The notes under the pieces: model-generated
Databases searched by the model: none
The model's input: only the letters and a program-made list of their open reading frames with translations
Told to the model about the DNA's origin: nothing
Position numbers and translations under genes: made by a program
NCBI GenBank assembly: GCA_019119365.1
Contig: DWXD01000035.1
Location: forward strand, 9,271 to 73,270
Source: Candidatus Gemmiger stercoripullorum
GTDB taxonomy: Bacteria; Bacillota; Clostridia; Oscillospirales; Ruminococcaceae
Direction: 5' to 3'
DNA: 64,000 nucleotides
Part shown: positions 1 to 62,209 of the stretch, piece by piece
How positions within the stretch are numbered: the first letter of the stretch is position 1
Layout of the letters: each line of letters begins with the position of its first letter

Positions 1-3000
1 CAGCACGCTGCCGTTGGGGTTGTAGCGCTGGTCCATCGTCGGCACGCAATCGGGGCCGACATACTGCGTCGCAATTTGACCGTTTTCGATCAGCTTGCGC
101 AGCAGGGCGTCGTTGCAGACAAAGCGGCCTTCGCCATGGCTGATGGCGATCAGGTGCTCGTCATTGACATCGCACTCCGAAAGCCACGGGCTCTTGTTGG
201 AAGCAACGCGCGTGCGCACCAGCATGCTCTGGTGGCGGTGCACGGTGTTGAAGGTCAGCGTCGGGTCGTCGGCCGTGATCGGGCGGATCTCGCCGTAGGG
301 GACAAGCCCCAGCTTGATCAGCGCCTGGAACCCGTTGCAGATGCCCAGCGCCAGGCCGTCGCGCTCGTTCAGCAGGCGGTTGACCGCGTCGGCCACAGCC
401 GGGGCGCGGAAGAACGCCGTGATGAACTTGGCCGAACCGTCCGGCTCGTCGCCGCCGGAGAAACCGCCCGGCAGCATCAGGATCTGCGCGGCGTCCAGCT
501 CGCGCACCAGCGCTTCACAGCTCTCGGCCACGTCGGCGGGGGTCAGGTTTTTCAGCACCAGCACATACGGGTCGCCTCCGGCGCGGCGGAACGCGCGCGC
601 GGTGTCGTATTCGCAGTTGGTGCCCGGGAACACCGGGATGATGACGCGCGGCGTCGCCAGGCGCACGGCGGGGGCGACGCGCTGGAAGGCGTTGCAGCTG
701 TATTCCAGCGCCTGCACCGGCTGCCCGGCGCGGCGGTAGGGGAATACCGGTTCGAGCTTGGCTTCCCAGATCTCCTGCAGCGGGGCCAGGTCCAGGTCCT
801 CGCCGCCTGCCACCAGCGTATAGTCGACCGTCGTGGTGCCCAAAAACTCACCGGCGCTCGCCTCCAGCAGCTCAAGGATCACCGCGCCGTAGCACGGCTT
901 GAGCAGGCTGTCGGGGTCAATGTTGCCGTTGAGGTGCAGGCCCAGGCGGTTGCCCAGGCACATTTTGAACAGCGCTTCGGCCACGCCGCCGAAACCGGGC
1001 GTGGCGGCGGCCAGGACCTTGCCTTCTTCAATCATCTGCTCGACGATCTTATAAATCGAGAGCAGGCTGCCGATCTCGGGCAGGCCGTCCTTATACTGCG
1101 GCTTGAGGATGACCACCGCGCTGCCGGATTTCTTGAACTCGGGGCTCAGCACACGGCGCGTGTTGCCCACGGCGGTGGCAAAGCTGACCAGCGTGGGCGG
1201 CACGTCCAGCCCTTCAAAGCTGCCGGACATGCTGTCCTTGCCGCCGATGGAGGCGATGCCCAGCCCCATCTGCGCGTCCAGCGCGCCGAGCAGCGCCGCC
1301 ATCGGCTTGCCCCAGCGCTCCGGCTGTTCGCCCATGTGCTCAAAATATTCCTGGAAGGTCAGGTACATGTCCTCGTGGCGGAACCCGGCGCAAACCAGTT
1401 TGGTCACGCTCTCCACCACCGCCAGGAAAGCGCCGCGGTAGGGGTCCGCCTCGGTCAGGTAGGGGTTGAAGCCCCAGGCCATGCCGCTGCAGGTCGTCGT
1501 CTCGCCGTCCACCGGCAGTTTGGCGGCCATCGCCATGGCGGGGGTCAGCTGGTATTTGCCGCCGTAGGGCATCAGCACGGTCGCTGCGCCGATCGTCGAA
1601 TCGAACCGCTCGCCCAGGCCTTTCTTGCAGCAGACGTTGAGGTCGCCGACCATCGCCTGCATCTTTTCGCCAAAGGTGTTGCCGGGCCAGGCCGGGGTCC
1701 AGCTGTGTCCGGCTTCAATGTGCACGCTGGCGTGGCGTTCCGCGCCGTTGGAGCTCAGGAACTCGCGCGAAAGATCAACGATGGCAGCGCCGTTCCACAG
1801 CTCGACCATGCGCTTTTCTTCCGTGACGGTGGCGACGATGGTCGCTTCGAGGTTCTCCTCGTTGGCTAGGGCGATGAAGGGCGCGGCGTCCTCGGGCGCT
1901 ACGGCCACGGCCATGCGTTCCTGGCTTTCGCTGATGGCCAGCTCGGTGCCGTCCAGACCCTCGTACTTTTTGGTCACTTTGTTCAAATCAATGCACAGCC
2001 CGTCGGCCAGTTCGCCGATGGCGACCGACACGCCGCCCGCGCCGAAGTCGTTGCAGCGCTTGATCATGCGGCAGGCGTCCTCGCGCCGGAACAGGCGCTG
2101 CAGCTTGCGCTCGATGGGGGCGTTGCCTTTCTGCACTTCGGCGCCGCAGGTTTCGAGGCTCGACAGCTTGTGCGCCTTGCTCGAACCCGTTGCGCCGCCG
2201 ATACCGTCGCGGCCGGTGCGGCCGCCCAGCAGGATGATCACGTCGCCGGGGGCCGGTTCCTCGCGGCGCACATGGCTCGCGAGCGTCGCGCCCACCACCG
2301 CGCCGATCTCCATGCGCTTGGCGACATAGCCGGGGTGGTAGAGCTCATCCACCTGCCCGGTTGCCAGGCCGATCTGGTTGCCGTAACTCGAATACCCCCG
2401 TGCGGCGGTTGTCACCAGCTTGCGCTGCGGCAGTTTGCCGGACATCGTTTCCTGCACGGGCACCAGCGGGTCGCCCGCGCCGGTCACGCGCATGGCCTGG
2501 TAAACATAGCTGCGGCCCGAAAGCGGGTCGCGGATCGCGCCGCCGATGCAGGTGGCCGCGCCGCCGAACGGCTCGATCTCGGTCGGGTGGTTGTGGGTCT
2601 CGTTCTTGAACAGGAACAGCCAGTCCTGCTCCTCGCCGTCCACGTCGCATTTGATCTTGACCGTGCAGGCGTTGATCTCCTCGCTCTCGTCAAGGTTCTT
2701 GAGGATGCCGCGCTGCTTGAGAGCTTTGGCCCCGATGGTGGCGGCGTCCATCAGCGTGCGCTTTTTGGCGTCGCGGCCGGTCTCTTTGCGCAGGGCCATG
2801 TAGCGGTCAAACGCCGCCTGCACGATGGCGTCGTCGATCTTCACATCGTCCAGGATCGTGCCGAACGTCGTGTGGCGGCAGTGGTCGCTCCAGTAGGTGT
2901 CGATGACCTTGATCTCGGTGATGGTCGGGTCGCGGTGCTCGCTGCGGAAATATTCCTGGCAGAACAGGATGTCGGCATGGTCCATGGCCAGCCCCTGCTC

Positions 3001-3540
3001 CTGGCGGAACTGCTCGAGCGCGGCTTCGTCCTTGTCAATAAAGCCGGTCAGCGTCTCGACGGCGCTGGGGATGGCGAACTCCATCTTCAGCGTCTCGCGC
3101 TCGGCAAGGCTCGCCTCGCGCGCTTCGACCGGGTTGATGACGTATTTCTTGATCGCGGCGAGGTCCGCCTCGCTCAAATCGCCTTCCAGCAGGTAGACGC
3201 GCGCGCTGCGTACGTCGGGGCGTTCGCCCTGGCTCAGCAGCTGGATGCACTGGCTGGCCGAATCGGCGCGCTGGTCAAACTGGCCGGGCAGATACTCGAC
3301 CGCAAAGACCGTGCCCGCCGCGGGCAGCTCGTCATACGTCACATCGACCGGCGGCTCGCTGAACACGGTGGGAATGGCCTTTTCAAACAGCTCGCGGTCA
3401 ATGCCCTCCACGTCGTAGCGGTTGAGCAGGCGCAGGCTTTTAAGCCCCTGGATGCCCAGCAGTTCGGTCAGTTCGTGGTACAGCCCCTGCGCTTCGCCGT
3501 CGAAACCGGGCTTCTTCTCCACATAGATGCGGTATACCAT
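1..3540 (-). CDS. purL: Phosphoribosylformylglycinamidine synthase, large single-chain type (3' end outside window)
   Basis: Not in the ORF track because there is no stop in the window. Manual reading: ATG at 3540 gives MVYRIYVEKKPGFD; contains DTYWSDHCRH, NETHNHPTEIEPFGGAATCIGG, GGRTGRDGIGGATGSSK and glutaminase-domain FPGTNCEYD; at position 1 it reads ...YNPNGSVL, still in frame. Last gene of the pur cluster. Confidence 0.95.
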   Translation of the reverse strand, partial: MVYRIYVEKKPGFDGEAQGLYHELTELLGIQGLKSLRLLNRYDVEGIDRELFEKAIPTVFSEPPVDVTYDELPAAGTVFAVEYLPGQFDQRADSASQCIQLLSQGERPDVRSARVYLLEGDLSEADLAAIKKYVINPVEAREASLAERETLKMEFAIPSAVETLTGFIDKDEAALEQFRQEQGLAMDHADILFCQEYFRSEHRDPTITEIKVIDTYWSDHCRHTTFGTILDDVKIDDAIVQAAFDRYMALRKETGRDAKKRTLMDAATIGAKALKQRGILKNLDESEEINACTVKIKCDVDGEEQDWLFLFKNETHNHPTEIEPFGGAATCIGGAIRDPLSGRSYVYQAMRVTGAGDPLVPVQETMSGKLPQRKLVTTAARGYSSYGNQIGLATGQVDELYHPGYVAKRMEIGAVVGATLASHVRREEPAPGDVIILLGGRTGRDGIGGATGSSKAHKLSSLETCGAEVQKGNAPIERKLQRLFRREDACRMIKRCNDFGAGGVSVAIGELADGLCIDLNKVTKKYEGLDGTELAISESQERMAVAVAPEDAAPFIALANEENLEATIVATVTEEKRMVELWNGAAIVDLSREFLSSNGAERHASVHIEAGHSWTPAWPGNTFGEKMQAMVGDLNVCCKKGLGERFDSTIGAATVLMPYGGKYQLTPAMAMAAKLPVDGETTTCSGMAWGFNPYLTEADPYRGAFLAVVESVTKLVCAGFRHEDMYLTFQEYFEHMGEQPERWGKPMAALLGALDAQMGLGIASIGGKDSMSGSFEGLDVPPTLVSFATAVGNTRRVLSPEFKKSGSAVVILKPQYKDGLPEIGSLLSIYKIVEQMIEEGKVLAAATPGFGGVAEALFKMCLGNRLGLHLNGNIDPDSLLKPCYGAVILELLEASAGEFLGTTTVDYTLVAGGEDLDLAPLQEIWEAKLEPVFPYRRAGQPVQALEYSCNAFQRVAPAVRLATPRVIIPVFPGTNCEYDTARAFRRAGGDPYVLVLKNLTPADVAESCEALVRELDAAQILMLPGGFSGGDEPDGSAKFITAFFRAPAVADAVNRLLNERDGLALGICNGFQALIKLGLVPYGEIRPITADDPTLTFNTVHRHQSMLVRTRVASNKSPWLSECDVNDEHLIAISHGEGRFVCNDALLRKLIENGQIATQYVGPDCVPTMDQRYNPNGSVL

Positions 3541-3552
3541 TCGGGGACCTCC

Positions 3553-4845
3553 TTAGTTTTCGGAAAGGGCGGCCAGCGCGCGGCGGCCGATGTCGCTGCG
3601 CATGTGCGCGCCTTCAAAATGGATGCGCCGCGCGGCCGCATAGGCTTTGTCCAGCGCCTGCGGCAGCGTATCGCCGGTGGCGGTCACGCCCAGCACACGG
3701 CCGCCCGCCGTCACGAGCTTGCCGTCCTTGACGGCGGTCCCGGCGTGGTAGACCGTCACCTCGGGCGCGTCGGGCAGCTGGCCTTCGGTCAGGCCGGTGA
3801 TCTCCTTGCCCTTCTCATAGGCGACCGGATACCCGCCGGAAGCCAGCACCACGCAGGCCGCCGCGCCGTCGCGGAATTTGACCTCGGTTTTGTCCAGCGT
3901 GCCGTTGGTCGTGGCCTGCATGATGGTCAGCAGGTCGCTTTCCAGCAGCGGCAGCACGACCTGCGCCTCGGGGTCGCCAAAACGGCAGTTGTACTCGATG
4001 ACCTTCGGCCCGTCGGGGGTGATCATCAGCCCGAAATACAGGCAGCCCTTGAACGGGCAGCCCTCGGCGGCCATGGCGGCCACGGTGGGCTTGAAAATCT
4101 TCTCCATGCACACAGCGGCTACGTCCGGGGTATAGTAGGGGTTCGGGGCCACGGTGCCCATGCCGCCGGTGTTGAGCCCCTCGTCGCCGTCCAAGGCGCG
4201 CTTGTGGTCCATGCTGGAGACCATCGGCACGACGGTTTTGCCGTCGCAGAAGGACAGCACGCTGACTTCGGGCCCGGTCAAAAATTCTTCCACGACCACA
4301 CGGTTGCCCGAAGCGCCGAACTTTTTGTCCAGCATGATCTCCTTAACGCCCGCCTCGGCCTCGGCTTCGTCCTGGCAGATCAGCACGCCCTTGCCCAGCG
4401 CCAGGCCGTCGGCCTTGACGACGACCGGGTACTGCCCGCGCGCGCGGATGTAGTCCATCGCGGCCGCCGCGTCGTCGAACGTTTCGTAGGCGGCGGTCGG
4501 GATGCCGTATTTTTTCATCAGATCCTTGCTGAACACCTTGCTGGCCTCGATGCGGGCGGCCGCGGCGGTGGGACCGAAAGAGGGGATGCCGACCCGCGCC
4601 AGCTCGTCTACCATGCCCAGCGCCAGCGGGTCGTCCTGTGCCACAACGGCATAGTCAAAACCTTCCTCTTTGGCATAAGCGACCATGGCGGGCACGTCGG
4701 TGGCCGGGATGGCTTTGCACACGGCGTCATAGCCGATGCCGCCGTTGCCCGGGGCGCAGTACAGCTGCGGGTGCAGCGGGCTCTTTTGCAGCGCGCGGAG
4801 GATCGCGTGTTCACGCCCCCCGCCGCCAACAACGAGAATCTTCAT
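3553..4845 (-). CDS. purD: Phosphoribosylamine-glycine ligase
   Basis: MKILVVGGGGREHA, APGNGG, KADGLALGKGV, EYNCRFGDPE, GGRVLGV motifs. Confidence 0.97.
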   Translation of the reverse strand: MKILVVGGGGREHAILRALQKSPLHPQLYCAPGNGGIGYDAVCKAIPATDVPAMVAYAKEEGFDYAVVAQDDPLALGMVDELARVGIPSFGPTAAAARIEASKVFSKDLMKKYGIPTAAYETFDDAAAAMDYIRARGQYPVVVKADGLALGKGVLICQDEAEAEAGVKEIMLDKKFGASGNRVVVEEFLTGPEVSVLSFCDGKTVVPMVSSMDHKRALDGDEGLNTGGMGTVAPNPYYTPDVAAVCMEKIFKPTVAAMAAEGCPFKGCLYFGLMITPDGPKVIEYNCRFGDPEAQVVLPLLESDLLTIMQATTNGTLDKTEVKFRDGAAACVVLASGGYPVAYEKGKEITGLTEGQLPDAPEVTVYHAGTAVKDGKLVTAGGRVLGVTATGDTLPQALDKAYAAARRIHFEGAHMRSDIGRRALAALSEN

Positions 4846-4919
4846 AAGCGTACTCCTTTGAACAGCAGCGGCCCGCAGCGAAAAAACGCTGCAGGCGCGT
4901 GTGATTTTTCAGATATACC

Positions 4920-6101
4920 TCAATGGTGGAACAGGCGGATGCCGCAGAACGCCATCGCGATGCCGTACTTGTTGCAGGTGTCAATGACCTGCTGGTCGCG
5001 GATGGAGCCGCCCGGCTGCACAATGGCGGTCACGCCGCTGCGGCGCGCGCGCTCGATGTTGTCGCCAAACGGGAAGAACGCATCGCTGCCCAGCGCCACG
5101 CCGGTCACCTTGCCCAGCCAGGCGGCCTTTTCCTCGGCCGTCAGCGGTACGGGCTGCTCGGTGAAGGTCTCGGCCCAGACATCGTCGCCAATGACATCCT
5201 CCGGCGTGTCGCCGATGTACACGTCGATGGCGTTGTCGCGGTTGGGTTTGGTCACATCATCGCGGAAGGGCAGGTCCAGCACTTTGGGCATGTGGCGCAG
5301 CTGCCAGTTGTCGGCCTTCTGGCCCGCCAGGCGGGTGCAGTGGATGCGGCTCTGCTGCCCGGCGCCCACGCCGATTGTCTGGCCGCCCTGCACATAGCAC
5401 ACGCTGTTGGACTGCGTGTACTTGAGCACGATCAGGCTCATGACCAGGTCGCGCTTCTGCTCTTCGGTCAGGGTCTTGTTTTCGGTCACGATGTTTGCAA
5501 GCATCGTGTCGGCCGTGATGGCCAGGTCCTGGCGGCCCTGCTCAAACGTGACGCCGTACACCGTGCGGCGCTCGAGCGGGGCGGGGGTGTACGCCGGGTC
5601 AATGGCGACGATGTTGTAGTTGCCCTTCTTTTTGCTCTTGAGCACTTCCAGCGCGTCATCGTCATAGCCGGGGGCGATGATGCCGTCGCTGACTTCGTGC
5701 TGGATGAGCCGGGCGGTGGCCAGGTCACACACGTCGGACAGCGCGATCCAGTCGCCGAAGCTCGACATACGGTCGGCCCCGCGCGCGCGGGCATAGGCGC
5801 AGGCAAGGGGAGAGAGCTCCGTCTCCGGGGCAATGTGGTACATGCGGCGCAGCGTCGCGTCCAGCGGCAGGCCCACGGCCGCCCCGGCAGGGGAGACGTG
5901 CTTGAAGCTGGCGGCGGCAGGCAGGCCCAGCGCGCCCTTCAGGTCCTTGACGAGCTGGTAGCTGTTGAAGGCGTCGAGAAAGTTGATGTACCCCGGCTTG
6001 CCGTTGAGGATCGTCACCGGCAGCTCGCTGCCGTCCGCCATAAAGATGCGGGCCGGTTTCTGGTTGGGGTTGGTGCCGTATTTCAGCTGAAATTCGTTCA
6101 T
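4920..6101 (-). CDS. purH: AICAR transformylase (short PurH lacking the N-terminal MGS-like IMP cyclohydrolase domain)
   Basis: Starts at LKYGTNPNQ (the LRYGENPHQ motif opening the transformylase domain); SFKHVSPAGAA, KYTQSNSV, GAGQQSRIHC, SDAFFPF, QPGGSIRD; only 393 aa. Confidence 0.92.
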   Translation of the reverse strand: MNEFQLKYGTNPNQKPARIFMADGSELPVTILNGKPGYINFLDAFNSYQLVKDLKGALGLPAAASFKHVSPAGAAVGLPLDATLRRMYHIAPETELSPLACAYARARGADRMSSFGDWIALSDVCDLATARLIQHEVSDGIIAPGYDDDALEVLKSKKKGNYNIVAIDPAYTPAPLERRTVYGVTFEQGRQDLAITADTMLANIVTENKTLTEEQKRDLVMSLIVLKYTQSNSVCYVQGGQTIGVGAGQQSRIHCTRLAGQKADNWQLRHMPKVLDLPFRDDVTKPNRDNAIDVYIGDTPEDVIGDDVWAETFTEQPVPLTAEEKAAWLGKVTGVALGSDAFFPFGDNIERARRSGVTAIVQPGGSIRDQQVIDTCNKYGIAMAFCGIRLFHH

Positions 6102-6103
6102 GG

Positions 6104-6841
6104 TTAGCCCTCCACCTTGTCGTATTTGTTGAGGATGACATCCTCATAATCGCCGGTGCCCAGCTCAATGCAGCGCACGAACAGGCTGACCTTGTTGTCG
6201 GCGTTCAGCGCCGCCCACAGCTTGCCGGCATACTCGCCCGGGTCGCTTTCATCGACCGCCACGCGGACCGGTTCGCCCGCAAAGCTCGGGATCGGGTCGC
6301 CGTTTTTCTGGTAGGTCGTCAGCAGGTGGCCTTCCCCGGCGACCGGCTGCGGATAATCGAAGGTCTGGCGCTGGACGCTGTCGTCGTTGCCTTCGCAGCT
6401 TTTCAGGATGCTCAGCTTGTAGCCGCCCAGGCGCATGTCCACAACGCCGGAAATGCGCGGGGTAAAATTCGGCGCGTCGTCCTCGAACGTGCGGGTCGCC
6501 AGCGCGGCCTCAAAGCTGTAGCCGGGGAACAGACCGTCCCGGATGAAATCATAGATCGTATCGGTCTGGTCGCCGTTGGTCACGATGGTGGTATCGCCCA
6601 GGGTCAGCACCGGGTTGTAGATGATCAGGTGCGGGTCCTGCATTTTGGCCGGGTCGGCGGCGACCGTGCGGATGCCGCCGCGCTCGGGCAGCGCCTCGAA
6701 CACGCGGTTGCGGCTGTTGGCGCTGCGGCCCATGATCCAGTAGCCGATCATCACATGCGCGCCGTCCGGCGCCAGGCCGATGCAGATGCCGCGGCCGGGA
6801 TATTCGTTGCCGGAAAGATACTTGTACAGATTCTTTTTCAT
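6104..6841 (-). CDS. Stand-alone IMP cyclohydrolase-like protein (PurO-like family)
   Basis: YPGRGI, YWIMGRSANSRNRVF, IIYNP, IVTNGDQTD, FEDDAPNFTPRISG motifs; lies between purN and the truncated purH. Confidence 0.85.
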   Translation of the reverse strand: MKKNLYKYLSGNEYPGRGICIGLAPDGAHVMIGYWIMGRSANSRNRVFEALPERGGIRTVAADPAKMQDPHLIIYNPVLTLGDTTIVTNGDQTDTIYDFIRDGLFPGYSFEAALATRTFEDDAPNFTPRISGVVDMRLGGYKLSILKSCEGNDDSVQRQTFDYPQPVAGEGHLLTTYQKNGDPIPSFAGEPVRVAVDESDPGEYAGKLWAALNADNKVSLFVRCIELGTGDYEDVILNKYDKVEG

Positions 6842-6844
6842 CGC

Positions 6845-7438
6845 TTACACCTCGTCATTGCACACCATGGCGATGGCCTTGGGCAGCAGTTTCCATTCTG
6901 CCTCGACCATCACGCGCTTCTGCAGCGTTTCGGGGGTGTCGCCGGGCCGGATGTCGACCGCTTTCTGCAAAAGGATCGGCCCGCCGTCGCACTCCTCGTT
7001 GACAAAATGTACGGTGGCGCCGGTCACTTTTACGCCGCGCGCCAGCGCCGCCTCATGCACCCGCAGCCCATAGAACCCCGGCCCGCAGAAGCTGGGGATC
7101 AAACTCGGGTGGACGTTCAAAATACGGTTCGGATACGCGGCGATCACGCTCGGCCCCAGCACGCTCAAAAACCCGGCCAGCACGACCAGATCAATGTTGT
7201 GCCCGGCCAGCACGTCCAGCAGCGCGGCGTCAAACGCTTCGCTGTCCGCATAGTCCCTGCGCGCCACCACGGCGGTGGGCACGCCGAACTGTTCGGCCCG
7301 GGTCAGGGCGTACACGCCCGGCTTGCTGGCCACCACCAGGGCTACCTGCCCGTTCGGGTTTTCGCCCCGGCGTTCGCTTTCCAAAATGGCCTGCAGGTTG
7401 GTCCCGCCGCCGGACACCAGCACTGCGATGCGCTTCAT
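6845..7438 (-). CDS. purN: Phosphoribosylglycinamide formyltransferase
   Basis: VSGGGTNLQA, LAGF, NVHPSLIP, GATVHFV..D.GPI. Confidence 0.97.
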   Translation of the reverse strand: MKRIAVLVSGGGTNLQAILESERRGENPNGQVALVVASKPGVYALTRAEQFGVPTAVVARRDYADSEAFDAALLDVLAGHNIDLVVLAGFLSVLGPSVIAAYPNRILNVHPSLIPSFCGPGFYGLRVHEAALARGVKVTGATVHFVNEECDGGPILLQKAVDIRPGDTPETLQKRVMVEAEWKLLPKAIAMVCNDEV

Positions 7439-8475
7439 ACCAGCTCCACCCCTTCGCCCTCGGCGATCACGCCCAGGCGGTACGCTTCCTGGCCGTTCGC
7501 CTGCAGGATGTCGATGGCTTTGCCGGCGTCTGCGGCCGCCACGGTCAGCACCATGCCCACGCCCATGTTGAAGGTGTTGAACATGTCGTGCTCGGAAATA
7601 CCGCCCGCTTCGGCAATCAGGCCGAACAGCGCCGGGGTGCGCACATCGGCCTTGGCGATGCGCGCGCAGCAGCCGTCCTTCAGGCTGCGGGGGATGTTCT
7701 CGTAAAAGCCGCCGCCCGTGATATGGGAGACGCCCTTAACGGTCACTTCCTGCATCACGGCCAGCACCGGCTTGACATAGATGCGCGTCGGGGTCAGCAG
7801 CGCTTCGCCCAGCGTGCAACCCAGTTCGTCATACTGCTTGTCCAGGACTTCGGGGTGCTCGTCCAGGCCGAACACTTTGCGCACGAGCGAAAAACCGTTC
7901 GAGTGCACGCCGGTCGAGGGCAGCGCGATCAGCACGTCGCCGGGCTGCATCGTGGAGTTGTCCAGGATCTTGCTCTTGTCGACAACGCCGACCGTGAACC
8001 CGGCCAGGTCGTAGTCGTCCTCCGGCATCACGCCGGGGTGCTCGGCCGTCTCGCCGCCCACAAGGGAGCAGCCCGCCTGCACACAGCCTTCGGCCACGCC
8101 CTTGACGATCTCGGCGATCTTTTCCGGCACGTTCTTGCCGCAGGCGATGTAGTCGAGAAAGACGAGCGGCTTGGCGCCCGCGCAGATCACGTCGTTGACG
8201 CACATCGCCACACAGTCGATGCCGATGGTGTCGTGTTTGTTCATGTACTGCGCCACACGCAGCTTGGTGCCGACGCCGTCGGTGCCGGAGATCAGCACCG
8301 GATGTTCGATGCCGGTGCAGTCCAGCTCAAACAGGCCGCCGAAACCGCCCAGCCCGCCGATGCAGTTCTCGGTCATTGTGCGCGCGACATACTGTTTCAT
8401 CAAACGGACGGCTTCATACCCGGCCGTAATGTCAACGCCGGCCGCGGCGTAGCTTTCGGAATAGCTCTTTTCCAT
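7435..8475 (-). CDS. purM: AIR synthase (phosphoribosylformylglycinamidine cyclo-ligase)
   Basis: YAAAGVDI, GTDGVGTK, GGETAEHPG, GVHSNGFSL, HITGGG, TFNMGVG; ATGA overlap with purN. Confidence 0.97.
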   Translation of the reverse strand: MEKSYSESYAAAGVDITAGYEAVRLMKQYVARTMTENCIGGLGGFGGLFELDCTGIEHPVLISGTDGVGTKLRVAQYMNKHDTIGIDCVAMCVNDVICAGAKPLVFLDYIACGKNVPEKIAEIVKGVAEGCVQAGCSLVGGETAEHPGVMPEDDYDLAGFTVGVVDKSKILDNSTMQPGDVLIALPSTGVHSNGFSLVRKVFGLDEHPEVLDKQYDELGCTLGEALLTPTRIYVKPVLAVMQEVTVKGVSHITGGGFYENIPRSLKDGCCARIAKADVRTPALFGLIAEAGGISEHDMFNTFNMGVGMVLTVAAADAGKAIDILQANGQEAYRLGVIAEGEGVELV

Positions 8476-8492
8476 GTGTCGTCCACTCCTTC

Positions 8493-9965
8493 TTACAGCT
8501 TTTTGTTGGTGTTGGACTGGCTCAGCGGCCGGTCAAAGATATAATCCATCGTCTCGGTGGGCGGGGCGACCGGATACTGCCCGGTAAAGCAGCCCACGCA
8601 GTACTGGCACTGGCTGTGCGGGGCCAGCTGCTGCACATGCTCGACGCTCAGGTACCCCAGCGTGTCCGAGCCGATGAGCTTGTTGATCTCCTCTACCGTA
8701 TGTCCGGTGGCGATCAGCAGCTTCTGGTCGGGGATGTCGGTGCCGAAATAGCACGGGTGGGTGAACGGCGGGGCCGAAATGCGGTAGTGCACCTCTTTGG
8801 CGCCCGCTTCGCGCAGCAGTTTGATCGTGCGGGCGCTGGTCGTGCCGCGCACGATGGAATCGTCCACCAGCACGACCCGCTTGCCCGCCACCGTCGAAGC
8901 GATGGCGTTGAGCTTGATGCGCACGCTGCTTTCGCGCTGTGCCTGGCTGCCCTGGATGAAGGTGCGGCCGACATACTTGTTTTTGATAAAGCCGACGCCG
9001 TAGGGGATGCCGCTCTCCTGCGCAAAGCCGAGCGCGGCGTCCAGCCCGGAATCCGGTGCGCCGATGACCACATCGGCCTCCACCGGGTGCTCCTGCGCCA
9101 GGAACCGCCCGGCCTGCAGCCGGGCCTCATGCACGCAGGTTCCCTCGATGACCGAGTCCGGCCGCGCAAAGTAGATGTACTCAAACACACACAGCGTGTG
9201 CGGCGCGGTGTTGCAGTGGGTGCGGATGCTGCGCATGCCGCTGCGGTCTACGACCACGATCTCGCCGGGCTCCACATCGCGCAGCATTGTGGCGCCGACA
9301 GCGTCCAGCGCGCAGGATTCCGACGCAAAGACGAACCCGGCCCCGTCCGGCAGCTCGCCGACGCACAGCGGGCGGAACCCGTGCGGGTCGCGCGCGGCAA
9401 TCAGCTTGGTGTGGGTCATGATGACCAGGCTGTATGCGCCTTCGATCTGCTCCATCGTGCGGCACACGGCCGTCTCGATATCGGGCGAGACCAGGCGGTT
9501 CTGGGTTAAAAGATAACCGATCACCTCGGTGTCCGACGTTCCGTGGAAGATCGAACCGCTCATCTCCAGCTTGTGGCGCAGCCGCGGGGCGTTGGTCAGG
9601 TTGCCGTTGTGGCACAATGCCATCGCGCCCTTGCAGTGGTGCAGGATCATCGGCTGGGCGTTCGACCGCGTGCGGCGGCCCGAAGTTGCGTAGCGCACAT
9701 GGCCGGTCGCCATCTTGGCGCCTTTGGGCAGGTCCTCCAGCACGCGCTTGGTGAACACCTCGCTCACCAGCCCCAGGTCCCGGTGGCCGGACAGCACGCC
9801 GTCCACGTTCAGCGCCATGCCGCAGCTCTCCTGGCCGCGGTGCTGCAGGGCGTACAGCGCGCTGTACACCGCGCTGATCATGTCGGTCTGCCCGGTGGAA
9901 TCATAGATGCCAAAGACGCCGCACTCCTCGTGCAGGCCGCAGGCATCCGGACAAAATTCGCTCAT
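8493..9965 (-). CDS. purF: Amidophosphoribosyltransferase
   Basis: Propeptide then HEECGVFG (catalytic Cys), LQHRGQES, GHVRYAT, VLVDDSIVRGTT PRPP loop, C-terminal Fe-S Cys cluster. Confidence 0.97.
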   Translation of the reverse strand: MSEFCPDACGLHEECGVFGIYDSTGQTDMISAVYSALYALQHRGQESCGMALNVDGVLSGHRDLGLVSEVFTKRVLEDLPKGAKMATGHVRYATSGRRTRSNAQPMILHHCKGAMALCHNGNLTNAPRLRHKLEMSGSIFHGTSDTEVIGYLLTQNRLVSPDIETAVCRTMEQIEGAYSLVIMTHTKLIAARDPHGFRPLCVGELPDGAGFVFASESCALDAVGATMLRDVEPGEIVVVDRSGMRSIRTHCNTAPHTLCVFEYIYFARPDSVIEGTCVHEARLQAGRFLAQEHPVEADVVIGAPDSGLDAALGFAQESGIPYGVGFIKNKYVGRTFIQGSQAQRESSVRIKLNAIASTVAGKRVVLVDDSIVRGTTSARTIKLLREAGAKEVHYRISAPPFTHPCYFGTDIPDQKLLIATGHTVEEINKLIGSDTLGYLSVEHVQQLAPHSQCQYCVGCFTGQYPVAPPTETMDYIFDRPLSQSNTNKKL

Positions 9966-10019
9966 TCTAACAAAACTCTCCGTTCTATGCGTACAACATG
10001 ACAGGGCAGGAAAGACGCA

Positions 10020-10739
10020 TCAGCCCAGCAGGCGCTTCATCACTTCCTGATAAGCGTCGGCCTCGCCGCCCATGTCGCGGCGGAACAGGTCCTTGTCCAG
10101 GTGCGCGCCGGTGGTGGCGTCCCAGAAACGGCAGGTGTCGGGGCTGATCTCGTCGGCCAGGATGATGGTGCCGTCGGCCAGGCGGCCAAACTCGAGCTTG
10201 AAGTCGATCAGGCGGATGTTGGCGTCGAGCAGGATCTTCTTGAGCACTTCGTTGACCTTGAAGGCATACTTGGTGATGGTGTCGATCTCTTCCTGGGTGG
10301 CCAGGTCGAGCGCCAGGGCGTAGTAGTGGTTGATGAACGGGTCATGCAGGTCGTCGTTCTTATAGCTGAACTCCAAAATCGGGGTCTTGAACGCGGTGCC
10401 CTCCGGCACGCCCATGCGCAGCGTGAAGTGACCGGCCGCCACATTGCGGATGATGACTTCGAGCGGCACGATCTCGACCTTCTTGACGAGGGTGTCGCGG
10501 TCGTTGAGTTCCTTGACATAGTGGGTGGGGATGCCCTCTTTTTCCAGCTTCTGCATCAGGGCGTTGGACAGCTTGTTGTTGACGATGCCCTTGTCGCGGA
10601 TGGTGCCCTTCTTCTCGCCGTCGCCGGCGGTGGCGTCGTCCTTATAGTGGACCATCACGATCTCGGGGTCGGTGGTCGCGAACACCTGCTTGGCCTTGCC
10701 TTCATACATCTGGTCCAGCACTTTGATCTCGTTTTCCAT
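10020..10739 (-). CDS. purC: SAICAR synthase
   Basis: YEGKAKQV, IPLEV-like IVPLEVIIRN, LIDFKLEFG, ADEISPDTCRFWD; start moved to ATG 10739 (RBS AAGGAGAG). Confidence 0.97.
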   Translation of the reverse strand: MENEIKVLDQMYEGKAKQVFATTDPEIVMVHYKDDATAGDGEKKGTIRDKGIVNNKLSNALMQKLEKEGIPTHYVKELNDRDTLVKKVEIVPLEVIIRNVAAGHFTLRMGVPEGTAFKTPILEFSYKNDDLHDPFINHYYALALDLATQEEIDTITKYAFKVNEVLKKILLDANIRLIDFKLEFGRLADGTIILADEISPDTCRFWDATTGAHLDKDLFRRDMGGEADAYQEVMKRLLG

Positions 10740-10802
10740 GATAAAACTCTCCTTTTGTTTTGTCTGCCCCAGGGGGCTTTGTTTGGCGTTTTCTACTTTG
10801 AT

Positions 10803-10855: not shown

Positions 10856-11362
10856 TTACAGCGCGGCGGCCTCGGCAGAAATGGCGGCGTCCTTCTTGGC
10901 GATGGCGGCGGCGGTATCGGCGCGGAAAGCGTCGAGCTTGGCCGCCAGGGCCTCGTCGTCCACAGCCAGGATGGACACGGCCAGGTACGCCGCGTTTTTC
11001 GCGCCGTTGAGCGCGACCGTCGCCACCGGGAAGCCGGAAGGCATCTGCACGGTGGCCAGCAGGGCGTCCAGGCCGTCCAGCGCGCCGCCTTTCATCGGGA
11101 TGCCCACGACCGGCAGCGTGGTGTTGGCCGCAAACGCCCCGGCCAGGTGGGCGGCCATGCCGGCCGCGCACAGGATCACGCCGTAGCCATTGGCGCGGGC
11201 GTTTTTAGCAAACGCGGCGGCGGCCTCCGGCGTGCGGTGGGCCGAAAGGATGCGCGCCTCATACGGCACGCCGAACTCCTTCAGCACGCTGCACGCGCCT
11301 TTCACGACCGGCCAGTCGCTGTCCGAACCCATGATGACGGCTACTTTTTTCTGTTCCTGCAT
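10856..11362 (-). CDS. purE: AIR carboxylase / N5-CAIR mutase
   Basis: [39 protein letters not shown]; start MQEQKK at 11362 after RBS AGGAGG. Confidence 0.97.
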
Positions 11363-11401
11363 ACTGCAAACCTCCTGTTTGACCGCGGGGAGAAGGCTCC
11401 C

Positions 11402-11437
11402 CAAATAAAACAGCGCAGCGTATACTTACACTGCGCT
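11402..11437 (-). terminator. Intrinsic terminator (attenuator) in the purE leader
   Basis: Minus strand AGCGCAG-12 nt loop-CTGCGCT followed by GTTTTATTT, about 40 nt upstream of the purE start. Confidence 0.65.
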
Positions 11438-11570
11438 TGCTGCGGATAAAGATATACGGCTGCCCAGCCCCCGGCGTACACGGGTGCACTGCGGTTCATG
11501 CTGGTTCCAAAAACGCGGCATCGTGCGCCCTCCCGTCTCAAAATGAAAGAGTTGGACATCCTGTAAATTT

Positions 11571-11599
11571 AGTGTAAAGCCCCGCCGCCAAAAAAGCAA
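11571..11599 (-). promoter_or_regulatory. Putative sigma-A promoter of purE
   Basis: Minus strand TTGCTT-17 nt-TACACT; implies a leader of about 200 nt. Confidence 0.55.
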
Positions 11600-11706
11600 G
11601 CGGGCAAACCGCTTTTCGGATATGTTGCCAGCCGTGTGGGTTTTGCCGCGTGTTTTTTGTCGAATTTGATGGACCGCGAATTTGAAAGTATGACTATTTT
11701 CTTTCC

Positions 11707-11735
11707 TTGCCGCCTGTTCAAAACCGTGCTATACT
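11707..11735 (+). promoter_or_regulatory. Putative sigma-A promoter of the acetyltransferase gene (divergent from purE)
   Basis: TTGCCG-17 nt-TATACT. Confidence 0.5.
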
Positions 11736-11770
11736 GACAATAAATTAGGAAAATCCGCAAAGGGGGCTTT

Positions 11771-12313
11771 GTGATGACGATTTTGTCCAAATTTTCCCAT
11801 GTGCTGGTGCTGGGCCGCGGCGGCTTCGGGGCTGAGCTCGGCGAAATGCTTGAAGACTGCGGCTGGGGCAAGCCGGTCTTTCTGGACGATAACGCCGCCG
11901 ATTGTGCCGGGGCGCTGCGCGATTATGTCGACCCGGCGCTGCGCCGCCAGTGCCCGGCCGCGTTTGTGGCCCTGGGCAATAACGCGCTGCGCCTGCAGCT
12001 GATCCAGAAACTGACGGCGACCGGTTACAAGCTGCCGGTGTTCATCCATCCCGCGGCCGAAGTCAGCCGCTCGGCTGCCCTGGGCGCGGGCAGCATGGTG
12101 CTGCCGTTTGCCTTCATCGGCGCCAATGTGCGCGCCGGGGCAGGCTGCCTGCTCAACGCCGGGGCCATCGTCGACCATGACGCCGTGCTCGGAGCCGCCG
12201 TACATGTGGCCCCCGGCGGGATCGTCAAAGCCGGGGCAAGGGTGGAGCAGGCCGCCAAAGTTGAATCCGGCCAGATCGTCCAAAGCCCGTGGCGGGAAAG
12301 AAAGGCTTTGTGA
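11771..12313 (+). CDS. NeuD/PglD-family sugar O/N-acetyltransferase (hexapeptide repeat)
   Basis: N-terminal LGRGGFG Rossmann-like motif, ALGNNALR, IHPAAEVS, GAIVDHD.V....HVAPG left-handed beta-helix repeats. Confidence 0.85.
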   Translation: MMTILSKFSHVLVLGRGGFGAELGEMLEDCGWGKPVFLDDNAADCAGALRDYVDPALRRQCPAAFVALGNNALRLQLIQKLTATGYKLPVFIHPAAEVSRSAALGAGSMVLPFAFIGANVRAGAGCLLNAGAIVDHDAVLGAAVHVAPGGIVKAGARVEQAAKVESGQIVQSPWRERKAL

Positions 12314-12481: not shown

Positions 12482-13522
12482 ATGGATAAAAATTTGATTG
12501 AACCCAAACCGATTGTTGATGAAAAAGAACTTAAACAGTTAAGCGCTATGACGCGGAAGTACGAGAAATTGATTGAGCCGGGGCTTGCAGCGAAAATTAC
12601 TTCAAATATCGGAAATGCACTCCCGGAACCCATTAAGCAGCTCGGTGGAGCTTTGGGCAGAACCATTACTGAGCAGGAACTTTATGAGCAGATTATGAGA
12701 GCTGCGACGCAAGGGTTTCAAGAGCTTCAAATGCGTGCGGCACGACTGTCAATTAGCGAAGAGGAGATATTAAAAAGAGCAAATCAACTTATACCTTTAG
12801 GAATGACAGATATCAAAGAACTTTGTTTTGCGCGTTGTTATGACCTGTCGAAGTTGGTTACTGCCTACAAAACGAGGGATATTGTAACTGCTTTTGCAGA
12901 GGGTGGAACCACTGGCGCCGCTGGCTTTTGGGGACTTCCATTCAACATTGTGTTGAGTACATTTCTATATTTTCGCGCAGTACAATCCATTGCAATGTTT
13001 TATGGCTACGATGTTAAAAATGACGAAGCCGAGTTGGTGATAGCCAACGAGGTTTTTACTAATGCATTAAACCCTGTATCGGATTTTGAGGGCGGCCAAG
13101 CAACAAACATCATTAGCAAATTTATGGTTATGGGTCAAGCTGCCGTGATCAAGCAAGCGGCAAAAAAAGGATGGAGCTCTATGATTTCCCGCGGTGGAAT
13201 ACCTTTGCTGCTAGCCCAAATGCGCGCATTAGCACACAAGTCAGCCAAAAAAGCGTTAGAAAAAGCAGGGCAGAAGGGACTTGAAAACTGTTTGTTCCGT
13301 GAATCGCTTGAGCAGGTGGGCCGAAAATTAACACTCAAAACAATTGGCAAAGCTGTACCTGTTGCATCGGCTCTTATTAGTGCAACACTTGATACTGCAC
13401 AGATGAATCAGGTCCTCAACTATGCCGATACGTTCTATCAGAAGCGTTTTATTTCCGAAAAGGAGTTCCGAATCAAACAAATCTTAAATGGAGAGCCATA
13501 TGTGGAAGGGCAACTTATATAG
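12482..13522 (+). CDS. EcsC-family protein on an AT-rich insert
   Basis: AFAEGGTTGAAGFWGLP, FRAVQSIAMFYGYD, IGKAVPVASALISA resemble EcsC-family motifs; AT-rich codons unlike the flanks; RBS GAGGG. Confidence 0.7.
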   Translation: MDKNLIEPKPIVDEKELKQLSAMTRKYEKLIEPGLAAKITSNIGNALPEPIKQLGGALGRTITEQELYEQIMRAATQGFQELQMRAARLSISEEEILKRANQLIPLGMTDIKELCFARCYDLSKLVTAYKTRDIVTAFAEGGTTGAAGFWGLPFNIVLSTFLYFRAVQSIAMFYGYDVKNDEAELVIANEVFTNALNPVSDFEGGQATNIISKFMVMGQAAVIKQAAKKGWSSMISRGGIPLLLAQMRALAHKSAKKALEKAGQKGLENCLFRESLEQVGRKLTLKTIGKAVPVASALISATLDTAQMNQVLNYADTFYQKRFISEKEFRIKQILNGEPYVEGQLI

Positions 13523-19519: not shown

Positions 19520-19833
19520 GCCAATAAAAAACCGTCCCTCAAAGGCTGTTGCCTTTGAGAGACGGGAAATGATCTGTCATCGTACCCGCGGTACCACTCT
19601 CGTTGCCGCCAAAGCGGCCTCTTAGTACGATCAGCTGTTTTGAAGCAAAACGGCGAATCGCGCCTGCATGATAACGGTCAGGTTCCGTCTGCGCCTAACG
19701 CCTGTGCGCTCAGCGCAGCTGCTCGGGGGCCAGTGACACAAGACCCTTCCGCACCGCCTTGCACCAACCGGCGGCTCTCTACAGCTGGAAATGGGACTGC
19801 TTTTTCCCCGTCACTGCATTTGAAATGATAACG
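19520..19833 (-). promoter_or_regulatory. Leucine T-box riboswitch leader of leuA-C-D-B
   Basis: Minus strand: Stem I with AGAGAG bulge and GGTTGGTGCAA loop; T-box GAGAGTGGTACCGCG (TGGTACC at 19596-19590); terminator CCGTCTCTCAAAGGC-AACA-GCCTTTGAGGGACGG-TTTTTT (19565-19526). Confidence 0.92.
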
Positions 19834-30599: not shown

Positions 30600-30675
30600 G
30601 CGGGATTAGCTCATCCGGTAGAGTGACTGCTTCCCAAGCAGTAGGTGGCGAGTTCGAGACTCGTATCCCGCTCCA
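30600..30675 (+). tRNA. tRNA-Gly (anticodon CCC)
   Basis: 76-nt cloverleaf: GCGGGAT/ATCCCGC acceptor stem, ACTGC-TTCCCAA-GCAGT anticodon arm, GTTCGA T-loop, U73, encoded CCA. Confidence 0.97.
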
Positions 30676-45424: not shown

Positions 45425-45609
45425 AAAAAGGACAGGGCCGCGCGGGTGTGCCCCGCGGTTGTGCTGTTCTGCATACGGATGCAGGCTTGCCGCGGCGCCG
45501 GGACGCCTGCGCTTAATGCTGCTCGGTTCCCCGCCTGACATGGTTCACGCGGGTCCCGCGCACGGGGCCCACATCCGTATGCAGAACAGCGCAAAGTGCC
45601 CTGTCCGCT
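45425..45609 (-). ncRNA. ffs: Signal recognition particle RNA
   Basis: Minus strand GAACCATGTCAGG-CGG-GGAA-CCG-AGCAGCATTAAG (helix 8 domain); perfect 19-bp basal stem (45463-45481 with 45572-45590); upstream of dnaX as in B. subtilis. Ends inferred from the promoter and U-tract. Confidence 0.93.
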
Positions 45610-58037: not shown

Positions 58038-58106
58038 ATGCGGATCGTCATCGTCAAATGTCCGCCCGCGCTGCGCTGGCTGCTGCGGGCCGTCTTTAAA
58101 GTCTGA
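58038..58106 (+). CDS. spoVM: Stage V sporulation protein SpoVM (22 aa; below the ORF-track cutoff)
   Basis: RBS AAAGGGAGG 7 nt before ATG; MRIVIVKCPPALRWLLRAVFKV*, with Lys7 and Pro9 as in B. subtilis SpoVM (MKFYTIKLP...); follows thiN as in B. subtilis; has its own terminator. Confidence 0.85.
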   Translation: MRIVIVKCPPALRWLLRAVFKV

Positions 58107-58113
58107 AAAACTG

Positions 58114-58158
58114 CGCCGCCCGGCACGACTTTCCTCGTGCCGGGCGGCGTTTTATTTT
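58114..58158 (+). terminator. Intrinsic terminator after spoVM
   Basis: CGCCGCCCGGCACGA-CTTTCC-TCGTGCCGGGCGGCG then TTTTATTTT (15-bp stem). Confidence 0.88.
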
Positions 58159-61818: not shown

Positions 61819-61832
61819 TATGGTGAAGAATA

Positions 61833-62209
61833 AACGACTGGACCGTAAGCCGGGTTCTGTATTAAACGACGATCTATCTTGACCTTGCGTTGCCGCAAGG
61901 CTCCGCCCGCGGGCCGCGGGGGTCCGCCGGCATGCCATCTCCGGGACGTGCGAGGCTTCCACATATGTCCCATACGGATGTTGCTTCTGACAGGGTTTAC
62001 ATAGCCGCAAAGTCGCCAGTGCGCTGGTGAGCTCTTACCTCGCCTTTCCATCCTTACCGCGCCAAAGCACGGCGGTTTCTTTCTGTTGCACTTTCCCTGG
62101 GGTCGCCCCCGGCTGCCGTTAGCAGTTGCCATGCCTCTGTGAAGCCCGGACTTTCCTCAGGCCGCGGCTGTCGCCAGCCGGCGGCCCGCCGCCGTATGTT
62201 CCACTCGTT
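61833..62209 (-). ncRNA. rnpB: RNase P RNA, bacterial type A
   Basis: Minus strand GAGGAAAGTCCGGGC, CAGGGAAAGTGCAACAGAAAG.AACCGCC, AAGG..GAAA, GGTAAGAGC, TAAACC, AGCAA, and 3' ACAGAACCCGGCTTA; 5'/3' P1 pairing. Confidence 0.97.

Follow-up and report, generated by a model that had tools for sequence, protein, structure and literature searches.

A conserved leader reading frame that ends at an intrinsic terminator before purE suggests a ribosome-gated attenuator of purine synthesis in Gemmiger and its relatives

In the pyrE (rph-pyrE) attenuator of Escherichia coli and Salmonella, worked out in the 1980s, an upstream frame stops a few nucleotides short of an intrinsic terminator, and a ribosome that keeps pace with RNA polymerase (RNAP) prevents the hairpin from forming, with no RNA antiterminator involved. 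The upstream frame of this enterobacterial system is a real gene, rph, and its signal is UTP. The E. coli pyrBI operon has instead a dedicated leader open reading frame (ORF), pyrL, which runs into or through the terminator, and a U-rich pause tract that senses UTP. Tight coupling of transcription and translation across pyrL prevents the terminator (PMC5021804), and this coupling is set by nucleotide-sensitive polymerase pausing upstream of the terminator (PMC3641672). In the Salmonella mgtCBR leader, the ATP-sensing ORF mgtM encodes a peptide that is not conserved; conserved nucleotides within the ORF, not codons, carry the signal, and sensing is proposed to proceed via the coupling or uncoupling of transcription and leader translation (PMC3641672). 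The amino-acid attenuators trpL, hisL, leuL and pheL likewise place a translated leader ORF before an intrinsic terminator, to which they add runs of regulatory codons and a set of 1:2, 2:3 and 3:4 hairpins that exclude one another. A quite different device, the ZTP riboswitch (RF01750, pfl motif), joins a structured aptamer of conserved sequence to an intrinsic terminator before purE.

Here we analyse the leader of the purine operon of Candidatus Gemmiger stercoripullorum, in a stretch of 64,000 nt (the window; contig DWXD01000035.1, positions 9,271 to 73,270). Completeness of the genome is about 90%. By purE, the named species closest to it belong to Gemmiger (88-93% identity), a genus that NCBI taxonomy assigns to the family Oscillospiraceae. 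A scan with NCBIfam models gave a nine-gene operon in the order purE-C-F-M-N-purO-like-purH-purD-purL, in which purH is the AICAR formyltransferase part only and the large FGAM synthase gene (purL) extends past the window edge. purE starts at ATG 11362 on the minus strand and has its own Shine-Dalgarno (SD) sequence, AGGAGG, at 11376-11371. Since the gene upstream of purE, which encodes a NeuD-like acetyltransferase, runs divergently (plus strand, beginning at 11771), positions 11363-11770 form a divergent intergenic region. The features of the locus are as follows.

11571 to 11599, minus strand: leader promoter, with -35 element TTGCTT (11599-11594), 17-nt spacer and -10 element TACACT (11576-11571); from reading the sequence and from conservation.
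11528 to 11534, minus strand: SD sequence GGGAGGG of the leader ORF, its GGAGG core 7 nt before the ATG; from reading the sequence and from conservation in the family.
11426 to 11521, minus strand: leader ORF of 31 codons plus stop (MPRFWNQHEPQCTRVRRGLGSRISLSAASAV), ATG at 11521; from reading the sequence and from conservation of the frame in relatives.
11453 to 11488, minus strand: three matches to five of the six positions of the pause consensus (version with a purine at +1; see below), RNA 3' ends at 11478, 11462 and 11454; from matching to the consensus.
11402 to 11437, minus strand: intrinsic terminator, with 5' strand 11437-11427, loop 11426-11423, 3' strand 11422-11412 and tail GTTTTATTTG (11411-11402); from a terminator scan and folds.
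11387 to 11402, minus strand: second hairpin, GGGGAG-CCUU-CUCCCC, lying after the terminator tail and ahead of the ribosome-binding site of purE; from reading the sequence and a fold.
10856 to 11376, minus strand: purE, the first gene of the regulated operon, and its SD sequence; from reading the sequence and gene assignment.
1 to 10790, minus strand: remainder of the operon (purC, purF, purM, purN, PurO-like, purH, purD and the large FGAM synthase); from the NCBIfam scan.

An earlier prediction for this DNA (the original prediction) had placed a sigma-A promoter at 11571-11599 and a U-tailed terminator at 11402-11437, and both are there. The promoter, on the minus strand, scores under the threshold of a consensus promoter scan, though its sequence block, CTTGC(T/A)TTTTTG...GCTTTACACT, is kept in a genome of the same genus and in Gemmiger relatives; from this conserved block we infer a transcription start near 11564 and a leader of about 200 nt. 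The terminator has a stem of 11 bp (11437-11412) followed by GTTTTATTT, and its helix appears in both the minimum-free-energy and the centroid folds of the leader; terminator-like sites in the region number 4, versus 1.2 in shuffled sequences. Within the Gemmiger clade the AGCGCAG/CUGCGCU stem is invariant. Across genera, too, the terminator stems are unusually conserved in sequence (GCUGYRR...YYRCAGC), a feature that gating by a ribosome leaves in part unexplained. The GGGGAG/CTCCCC hairpin that had also been proposed near the ribosome-binding site does exist at 11402-11387, but it is missing from the closest relatives and therefore probably lies outside the conserved device.

The same prediction had suggested that the leader could be a new or variant ligand-sensing RNA, loosely recalling the ZTP aptamer. 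Rfam models found nothing at the gathering threshold in the purE leader and nothing relevant, ZTP included, at E<=10 (11300-11800), so that neither a ZTP variant nor any other Rfam family can be assigned; this agrees with the suggestion that the leader matches no known family. Membership in RF01750 takes a covariance-model match of at least 39 bits, and the window leader gives no match even at E<=10. Two true ZTP leaders at the purE locus show ACUGACGG...CCGACCGUCUGGGCA; the J1/2 segment (GACUGGCG-like) and the 3' CCGNCUGGGCA pseudoknot partner are both lacking from the window leader, which has only CUGGGCA, and this tail is not present in the leaders of the nearest relatives. The short sequences on which the prediction drew do all occur on the minus strand, GGGCGCAC at 11530-11523 and GTGCACCC at 11489-11482, together with UGGAACCA, CAUGAA, CUGGGCA and three CGCAG tracts; their occurrence does not exceed chance, and the pairings built on them are no better than in shuffles. 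The 216-nt leader as a whole folds no better than its dinucleotide shuffles (z -0.66). The proposed GGGCGCAC/GUGCACCC helix, in which the SD region would pair with sequence farther downstream, scores z +0.2 and is neither conserved in Gemmiger nor present in the consensus fold of the relatives, so we rejected it as a P1-like, SD-sequestering or aptamer stem. The CGCAG tracts, put forward as alternative partners of the terminator, were rejected as an antiterminator as well: upstream pairing with the 3' and 5' strands of the terminator in the window gave z -0.15 and -0.57, with no enrichment in the leaders of the family either.

In an RNAalifold consensus of the window leader with five Gemmiger or Subdoligranulum leaders, the terminator was the only consensus helix, and none other was conserved or covarying. 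The sequence between the SD and the terminator varies in length and cannot be aligned even within the genus, and word statistics on related leaders revealed no aptamer-like block of conserved unpaired nucleotides. Judged by this comparison, the purE leader is not a metabolite-binding riboswitch. What does stand of the proposal is its broader part, an undescribed regulatory leader before purine genes, here in the form of a conserved attenuator.

The conserved feature between promoter and terminator is a translatable frame. The leader ORF begins at ATG 11521, 6 nt after GGGAGGG (11534-11528), and its stop codon, TAA at 11428-11426, covers the last two bases of the 5' strand of the terminator and the first base of the loop. 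The frame enters the terminator loop in the same way in two Gemmiger species, and in one Gemmiger relative (Ca. G. excrementigallinarum) it extends across the entire terminator. This SD and 31-codon ORF had been missed in the original prediction.

To place the frame in its family, we assembled the sequences upstream of purE in 101 genera of Oscillospiraceae. GGAGG was the most over-represented 5-mer in related leaders (34 leaders versus 9.1 expected), and 70 of the 101 genera had the order promoter, SD and start, ORF, terminator, purE ribosome-binding site; the purE leaders that fall outside these layout criteria make up about 30% of the family. The frames of the 70 leaders span 19-65 codons (median 38), start with ATG (56), GTG (9) or TTG (5), and have their stop, in the median, 9 nt ahead of the terminator stem's first G-C pair (interquartile range -13 to -5). 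We then picked the start by SD strength alone, blind to the stop, and scored the first stop in each frame as reaching the terminator if it lay from -25 to +14 nt of the stem. As the sampled genera are related to one another, the ORF and pause counts and shuffle statistics given here overstate the number of independent events; with this in mind, frame 0 was open to the terminator in 57 of 83 genera, versus 10 and 20 of 83 for frames +1 and +2 (Fisher p 1.2e-8 against frame +2), and the median open lengths of frames 0, +1 and +2 were 105, 16 and 68 nt. Among named genomes (including Gemmiger formicilis, G. gallinarum, Subdoligranulum variabile, Faecalibacterium prausnitzii ATCC 27768, Lawsonibacter and Pseudoflavonifractor), frame 0 was open in 40 of 57, versus 3 and 14 for the other two frames. 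Across dozens of genera with 55-90% purE identity, then, the frame is kept together with its SD, its start and the placement of its stop with respect to the terminator, while the leader peptides are unrelated even between congeners. Such a pattern, read from sequence comparison, indicates that the open frame is under selection and that the peptide sequence is not conserved. A conserved translatable ORF that ends at the terminator argues for a mechanism mediated by a ribosome rather than by an aptamer.

For a negative control we took 80 regions upstream of purE, spread over about 50 other families of Clostridia, where frame 0 was open to the terminator in 10 of 49, versus 4 and 7 for the other frames, which is background. 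The layout is therefore not a general feature of purE in Clostridia; outside the family its place is taken by ZTP. A ZTP riboswitch was found in all 20 of the purE leaders submitted from other Clostridia families, and a true ZTP riboswitch lies before purE, instead of the leader-ORF device, in four genera of the same family; in both groups the riboswitches at the purE locus score 49-69 bits. The leader-ORF device and ZTP are thus alternatives at one locus. In the window's own genome, nothing matched ZTP above 22 bits (the best two matches, at 22 and 19.7 bits, lie elsewhere, inside apparently coding GC-rich sequence). The original prediction had noted the absence of a purine-riboswitch core, and RF00167 has indeed no match in the window, nor genome-wide at E<=0.01. 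No PurR was found in this genome either, which leaves the purE leader as the only recognisable purine control element. A search of the genome for a second unit with the SD-ORF-terminator layout returned purE and genuine small proteins (for example L31 and L32), and no other.

Does the frame carry its signal in codons? No amino acid dominates the leader peptides (S 10%, G 9%, L 8%), and glycine or other codon bias was rejected as a signal, as there is only the usual excess of G at first positions. UGC is frequent but spread over the three frames without preference (93, 67 and 82), with Cys at about 5% in every frame, which led us to reject a cysteine-sensing leader peptide and indicates that UGC is a signal at the level of RNA or DNA. 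Nor did we detect an RNA antiterminator, either by pairing in the 70 leaders or in the consensus fold of the relatives: duplex energies of the ORF body with the two terminator strands equalled those of dinucleotide shuffles (mean z 0.07 and -0.05 over the 70 leaders). The leader thus has neither the cluster of regulatory codons nor the mutually exclusive antiterminator and terminator hairpins of a classical amino-acid attenuator. Given that upstream sequence pairs with the terminator no better than shuffles do, the most economical working model is one in which the hairpin is blocked by the ribosome itself.

The sequence signal within the frame resembles a polymerase pause. Word statistics in related leaders flagged GUGYAC, UGCACC and UUUUGC, and once leaders were aligned on UGC, G made up 44% of the bases 8 nt upstream and 48% of those 7 nt upstream, versus a background of 24%. 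This gave the composite motif GG-N6-UGY plus a purine (next base A 48%, G 33%). The consensus elemental pause signal is g-11 G-10 t-3 g-2 Y-1 G+1, and RNAP of Clostridioides difficile prefers +1A and T-rich versions of it in vitro (PMC13174505; PMC12288461). GG-N6-UGY-R equals this consensus at every specified position and in spacing. The motif occurs 74 times in the 70 family leaders versus 14.3 +- 3.6 in dinucleotide shuffles (about fivefold) and 24 times in 41 further leaders versus 6.6 +- 2.7, counts to which the relatedness of the genera applies as above, and its enrichment is confined to the sense strand. Its density is 0.80 per 100 nt, versus 0.06 in ZTP-type purE leaders and 0.04 in other Clostridia upstream regions. 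Leaders have at most three copies, in variable frame and irregularly spaced; the median distance of a site is 82 nt from the start codon upstream of it, and 33 nt and 47 nt from the stop and the terminator stem that follow. In Faecalibacterium leaders CAGGGGCAU(C/G)GUGCAGC is nearly invariant and the next 35 nt vary freely; the pause-element site in this genus reads CAGGGGCAUCGUGC followed by A. The 5' strand of the terminator is itself a full pause match in 19 of the 70 leaders, versus 2.4 +- 1.5 in shuffles (maximum 7), and such strands have GG at the base of the stem (for example GGCCGUGGUGC followed by A). At these terminators the polymerase would pause after the 5' strand has been made and before the 3' strand. 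UGC in pause elements also has a bearing on annotation, as "Cys-rich leader peptides" here would be a by-product of it.

The leader in the window has no full match to the pause consensus, and its three matches to five of six positions, versus 1.9 in shuffles (p 0.31), are not beyond chance, although in Ca. Gemmiger avicola the position that corresponds to the 11454 site is a full match. The argument for pausing therefore rests on the family, not on the sequence of the window. The NusG-type pause motif TTNTTT was not enriched (z 1.4). The U-tract of pyrBI raised the question of whether purine-rich tracts serve as pause regions here; we rejected this, as the leader body is 48-53% purine and A-richness is limited to the 10 nt before the terminator stem. 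A +1 purine is common to pause sites in general, and the leader body is not rich in purines, so any specificity for purines would be conjecture.

Taken together, these observations suggest that the purE leader is probably an attenuator of the pyrE/pyrBI type, in which the ribosome acts as antiterminator. Transcription would start near 11564, and a ribosome would load on GGGAGGG/ATG (11534-11519) and translate the 31-codon frame, which ends within the intrinsic terminator (11437-11402). A ribosome close behind RNAP would cover or unwind the 5' strand of the terminator while the 3' strand and the U-tract are being made; with the hairpin blocked, the polymerase would read into purECFMN-purH-purD-purL. 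If the ribosome lagged or never loaded, the hairpin would form and transcription would stop. No RNA antiterminator would be needed, because the ribosome takes that part. We infer that the leader frame is translated and that the pauses let the ribosome catch up with the polymerase. More tentatively, since we consider it possible but doubtful, the signal of the attenuator may be pausing that is sensitive to purine NTPs: low purine NTPs would give longer pauses, tighter coupling and an active operon. Escape from the pause needs incoming ATP or GTP, so that low purine NTPs would favour read-through, which is the right sign of regulation. The full combination, a purine counterpart of pyrBI and pyrE with arrays of pauses awaiting ATP or GTP (one of them often within the 5' strand of the terminator), an ORF free of sequence constraint, neither aptamer nor alternative fold, and ZTP displaced, is likewise a speculative reading, possible but doubtful. 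Counting against a reading based on coupling, RNAP of Bacillus subtilis outruns its ribosomes.

The purE leader resembles pyrE in that the frame stops shortly before an intrinsic terminator (by a median of 9 nt in the leaders of the family) with no RNA antiterminator, and differs in having a dedicated short ORF, in serving a de novo purine operon and in belonging to Gram-positive Clostridia. With pyrBI it shares the dedicated ORF into or through the terminator, the read-through form being that of Ca. G. excrementigallinarum; in contrast to the U-rich tract of pyrBI, the purE leaders have GG-N6-UGY plus a purine and belong to the purine pathway. Like mgtM, it has a short leader ORF with a non-conserved peptide and, by our proposal, would sense purine NTPs via coupling and uncoupling. 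The mgtM leader, however, has alternative stem-loops and no obvious intrinsic terminator and is turned on by high ATP, whereas the purE leader has a plain terminator and no alternative fold and would be expected to turn on at low purine NTPs. ZTP occupies the same niche and also has an intrinsic terminator ahead of purE as its output module, but the conserved aptamer structure that it requires is absent from the window leader. From trpL, hisL, leuL and pheL the leader differs in having neither codon runs nor exclusive hairpins, the translated ORF followed by a terminator being what they have in common.

Other explanations of the same layout have to be weighed against purine-sensitive pausing. 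The same ribosome-gated terminator might sense translation itself, through ribosome supply, initiation capacity or elongation speed (as in amino-acid starvation). The evidence for the architecture serves this idea equally well, the weak pairing of the SD region with downstream sequence across the 70 leaders (mean z -0.83) could tune initiation, and a leader body that is not purine-rich agrees with it. We nevertheless consider it unlikely, given the lack of regulatory codons or amino-acid bias, an enrichment of the pause consensus that points to polymerase kinetics as the tuned side, and the oddity of a purine operon without purine input in a genome without PurR, purine riboswitch or ZTP; were this minority reading correct, purine synthesis would be tied to the capacity for protein synthesis and not to purine NTP pools. 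The GG-N6-UGC repeats or the conserved stem could instead be recognised in trans by an RNA-binding protein comparable to PyrR or TRAP, or by a small RNA, which would control formation of the hairpin and leave the ORF a secondary role. Up to three motif copies per leader and the unusual conservation of the stems, with AGCGCAG invariant in Gemmiger, would fit a binder, yet the motif coincides in positions and spacing with an independently defined polymerase pause consensus, its copies are irregularly spaced, no candidate protein was identified, and a binder leaves unexplained why the frame is kept open up to the terminator; we regard it as quite improbable.

A new or variant ligand riboswitch, responding to ZTP or another purine-pathway ligand through an aptamer made of GGGCGCAC/GUGCACCC and CUGGGCA, would suit the location before a purine operon, the terminator downstream and the presence of ZTP riboswitches at the same position in other genera, and, as no Rfam family matches, an RNA switch here would be a new one. 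It would have to do with no conserved or covarying helix beyond the terminator, with a proposed helix and pairings at the level of shuffles, with no conserved unpaired block as in aptamers, and with an SD-to-terminator stretch of variable length that cannot be aligned within the genus and whose CUGGGCA is absent in the nearest relatives; we find this extremely improbable, and the comparison of relatives in effect refutes it. Equally hard to credit is that there is no device at all, only a small gene or chance ORF and a leaky terminator that constitutively lowers expression. Such an account draws on the non-conserved peptide and on the window's own pause matches and helices, which are at chance level, but it is contradicted by a frame, SD, start and stop position that are kept across dozens of genera and absent in other Clostridia, and by the replacement of a known regulator, ZTP, at the same site. 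A probable pyrE/pyrBI-type attenuator remains our preferred reading of the leader.

The de novo synthesis of purines is costly and metabolically central, and a conserved transcription attenuator of this kind in the leader of its operon is apparently undescribed so far; in a literature search that was not exhaustive we met no report of purine operons controlled by a leader-ORF attenuator, and the race between ribosome and RNAP is documented for enterobacterial pyrimidine genes, with none found for purine genes or for Clostridia. If the proposal is true, many abundant commensals of the gut, namely Gemmiger, Subdoligranulum, Faecalibacterium, Lawsonibacter and their relatives, would control purine synthesis through a kinetic race of ribosome against RNAP, and at purE the device would have displaced ZTP in much of the gut Oscillospiraceae, Faecalibacterium prausnitzii among them. 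The locus would then offer a test case for the consensus elemental pause signal as a regulatory part, and another for the replacement of a riboswitch, ZTP, by a ribosome-based switch at a single locus. It would also imply functional coupling of transcription and translation in Clostridia, and would provide a test case for such coupling in Firmicutes-type bacteria.

A form of the purE leader with a shorter ORF was found in Lawsonibacter, Pseudoflavonifractor and other Oscillospiraceae (collected leaders L108, L111, L113, L116, L120, L123, L130, L131, L137 and L151), in which the leader ORF spans 20-25 codons, contains the conserved block ..GG-N6-UGCG-UCCAAA and runs towards a terminator of the form CAGGCUGUCUGUAC...CAGAUGGCCUG. 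Counted from the AAA of the block, the stop is always the fourth codon, and the three codons in between are variable. The predicted pause site is thus fixed ~16 nt before the stop codon.

Genuine small proteins aside, the layout of the purE leader, a short SD-led ORF ending at an intrinsic terminator upstream of a gene, recurs only once more within the window:

about 58038-58150, plus strand, short SD-led ORF MRIVIVKCPPALRWLLRAVFKV

This ORF ends ~10 nt 5′ of a strong terminator, beyond which lies a 516-aa gene. A scan of the genome returned a few further candidates for the layout on other contigs.

The divergent intergenic region upstream of purE holds further elements:

11695-11686, minus strand, conserved box AGTCATACTT, part of an element at 11661-11695
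11684-11677 and 11668-11661, minus strand, direct repeat CAAATTCG, 3′ of the box and followed by an A-run
11598-11614, minus strand, terminator-like hairpin with a T-run
11633-11652, plus strand, terminator-like hairpin with a T-run

The box and repeats are separated from the purE promoter by ~100 nt, on its upstream side; in some relatives the box is present on the opposite strand, as AAGTATGACT. Gemmiger, Subdoligranulum and other genera carry comparable boxes (AAAGTCATAC.., CCATCAAAAACGACAAAAAG) ahead of purE. Since the genome is without PurR, we consider that the element may be an operator for some transcription factor. One of the two hairpins overlaps the purE promoter at its -35 element.

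Elsewhere in the window, four Rfam matches are ordinary, and a 346-aa ORF had no match in an NCBIfam scan at E<=1e-5:

19555-19823, minus strand, T-box leader (99 bits)
30600-30672, plus strand, tRNA
45476-45574, minus strand, small SRP RNA
61831-62207, minus strand, RNase P class A
12482-13522, plus strand, 346-aa ORF

Profile matches also bear on the purine genes themselves:

4920-6101, minus strand, purH
6104-6841, minus strand, PurO-like gene preceding purH

The purH gene encodes the AICAR formyltransferase part only (NF005492, 663 bits), and the gene preceding it gives only a weak match to archaeal-type IMP cyclohydrolase PurO, scoring 48 bits against a cut-off of 150 bits. These matches suggest that this bacterium has a split PurH alongside a PurO-like cyclohydrolase.
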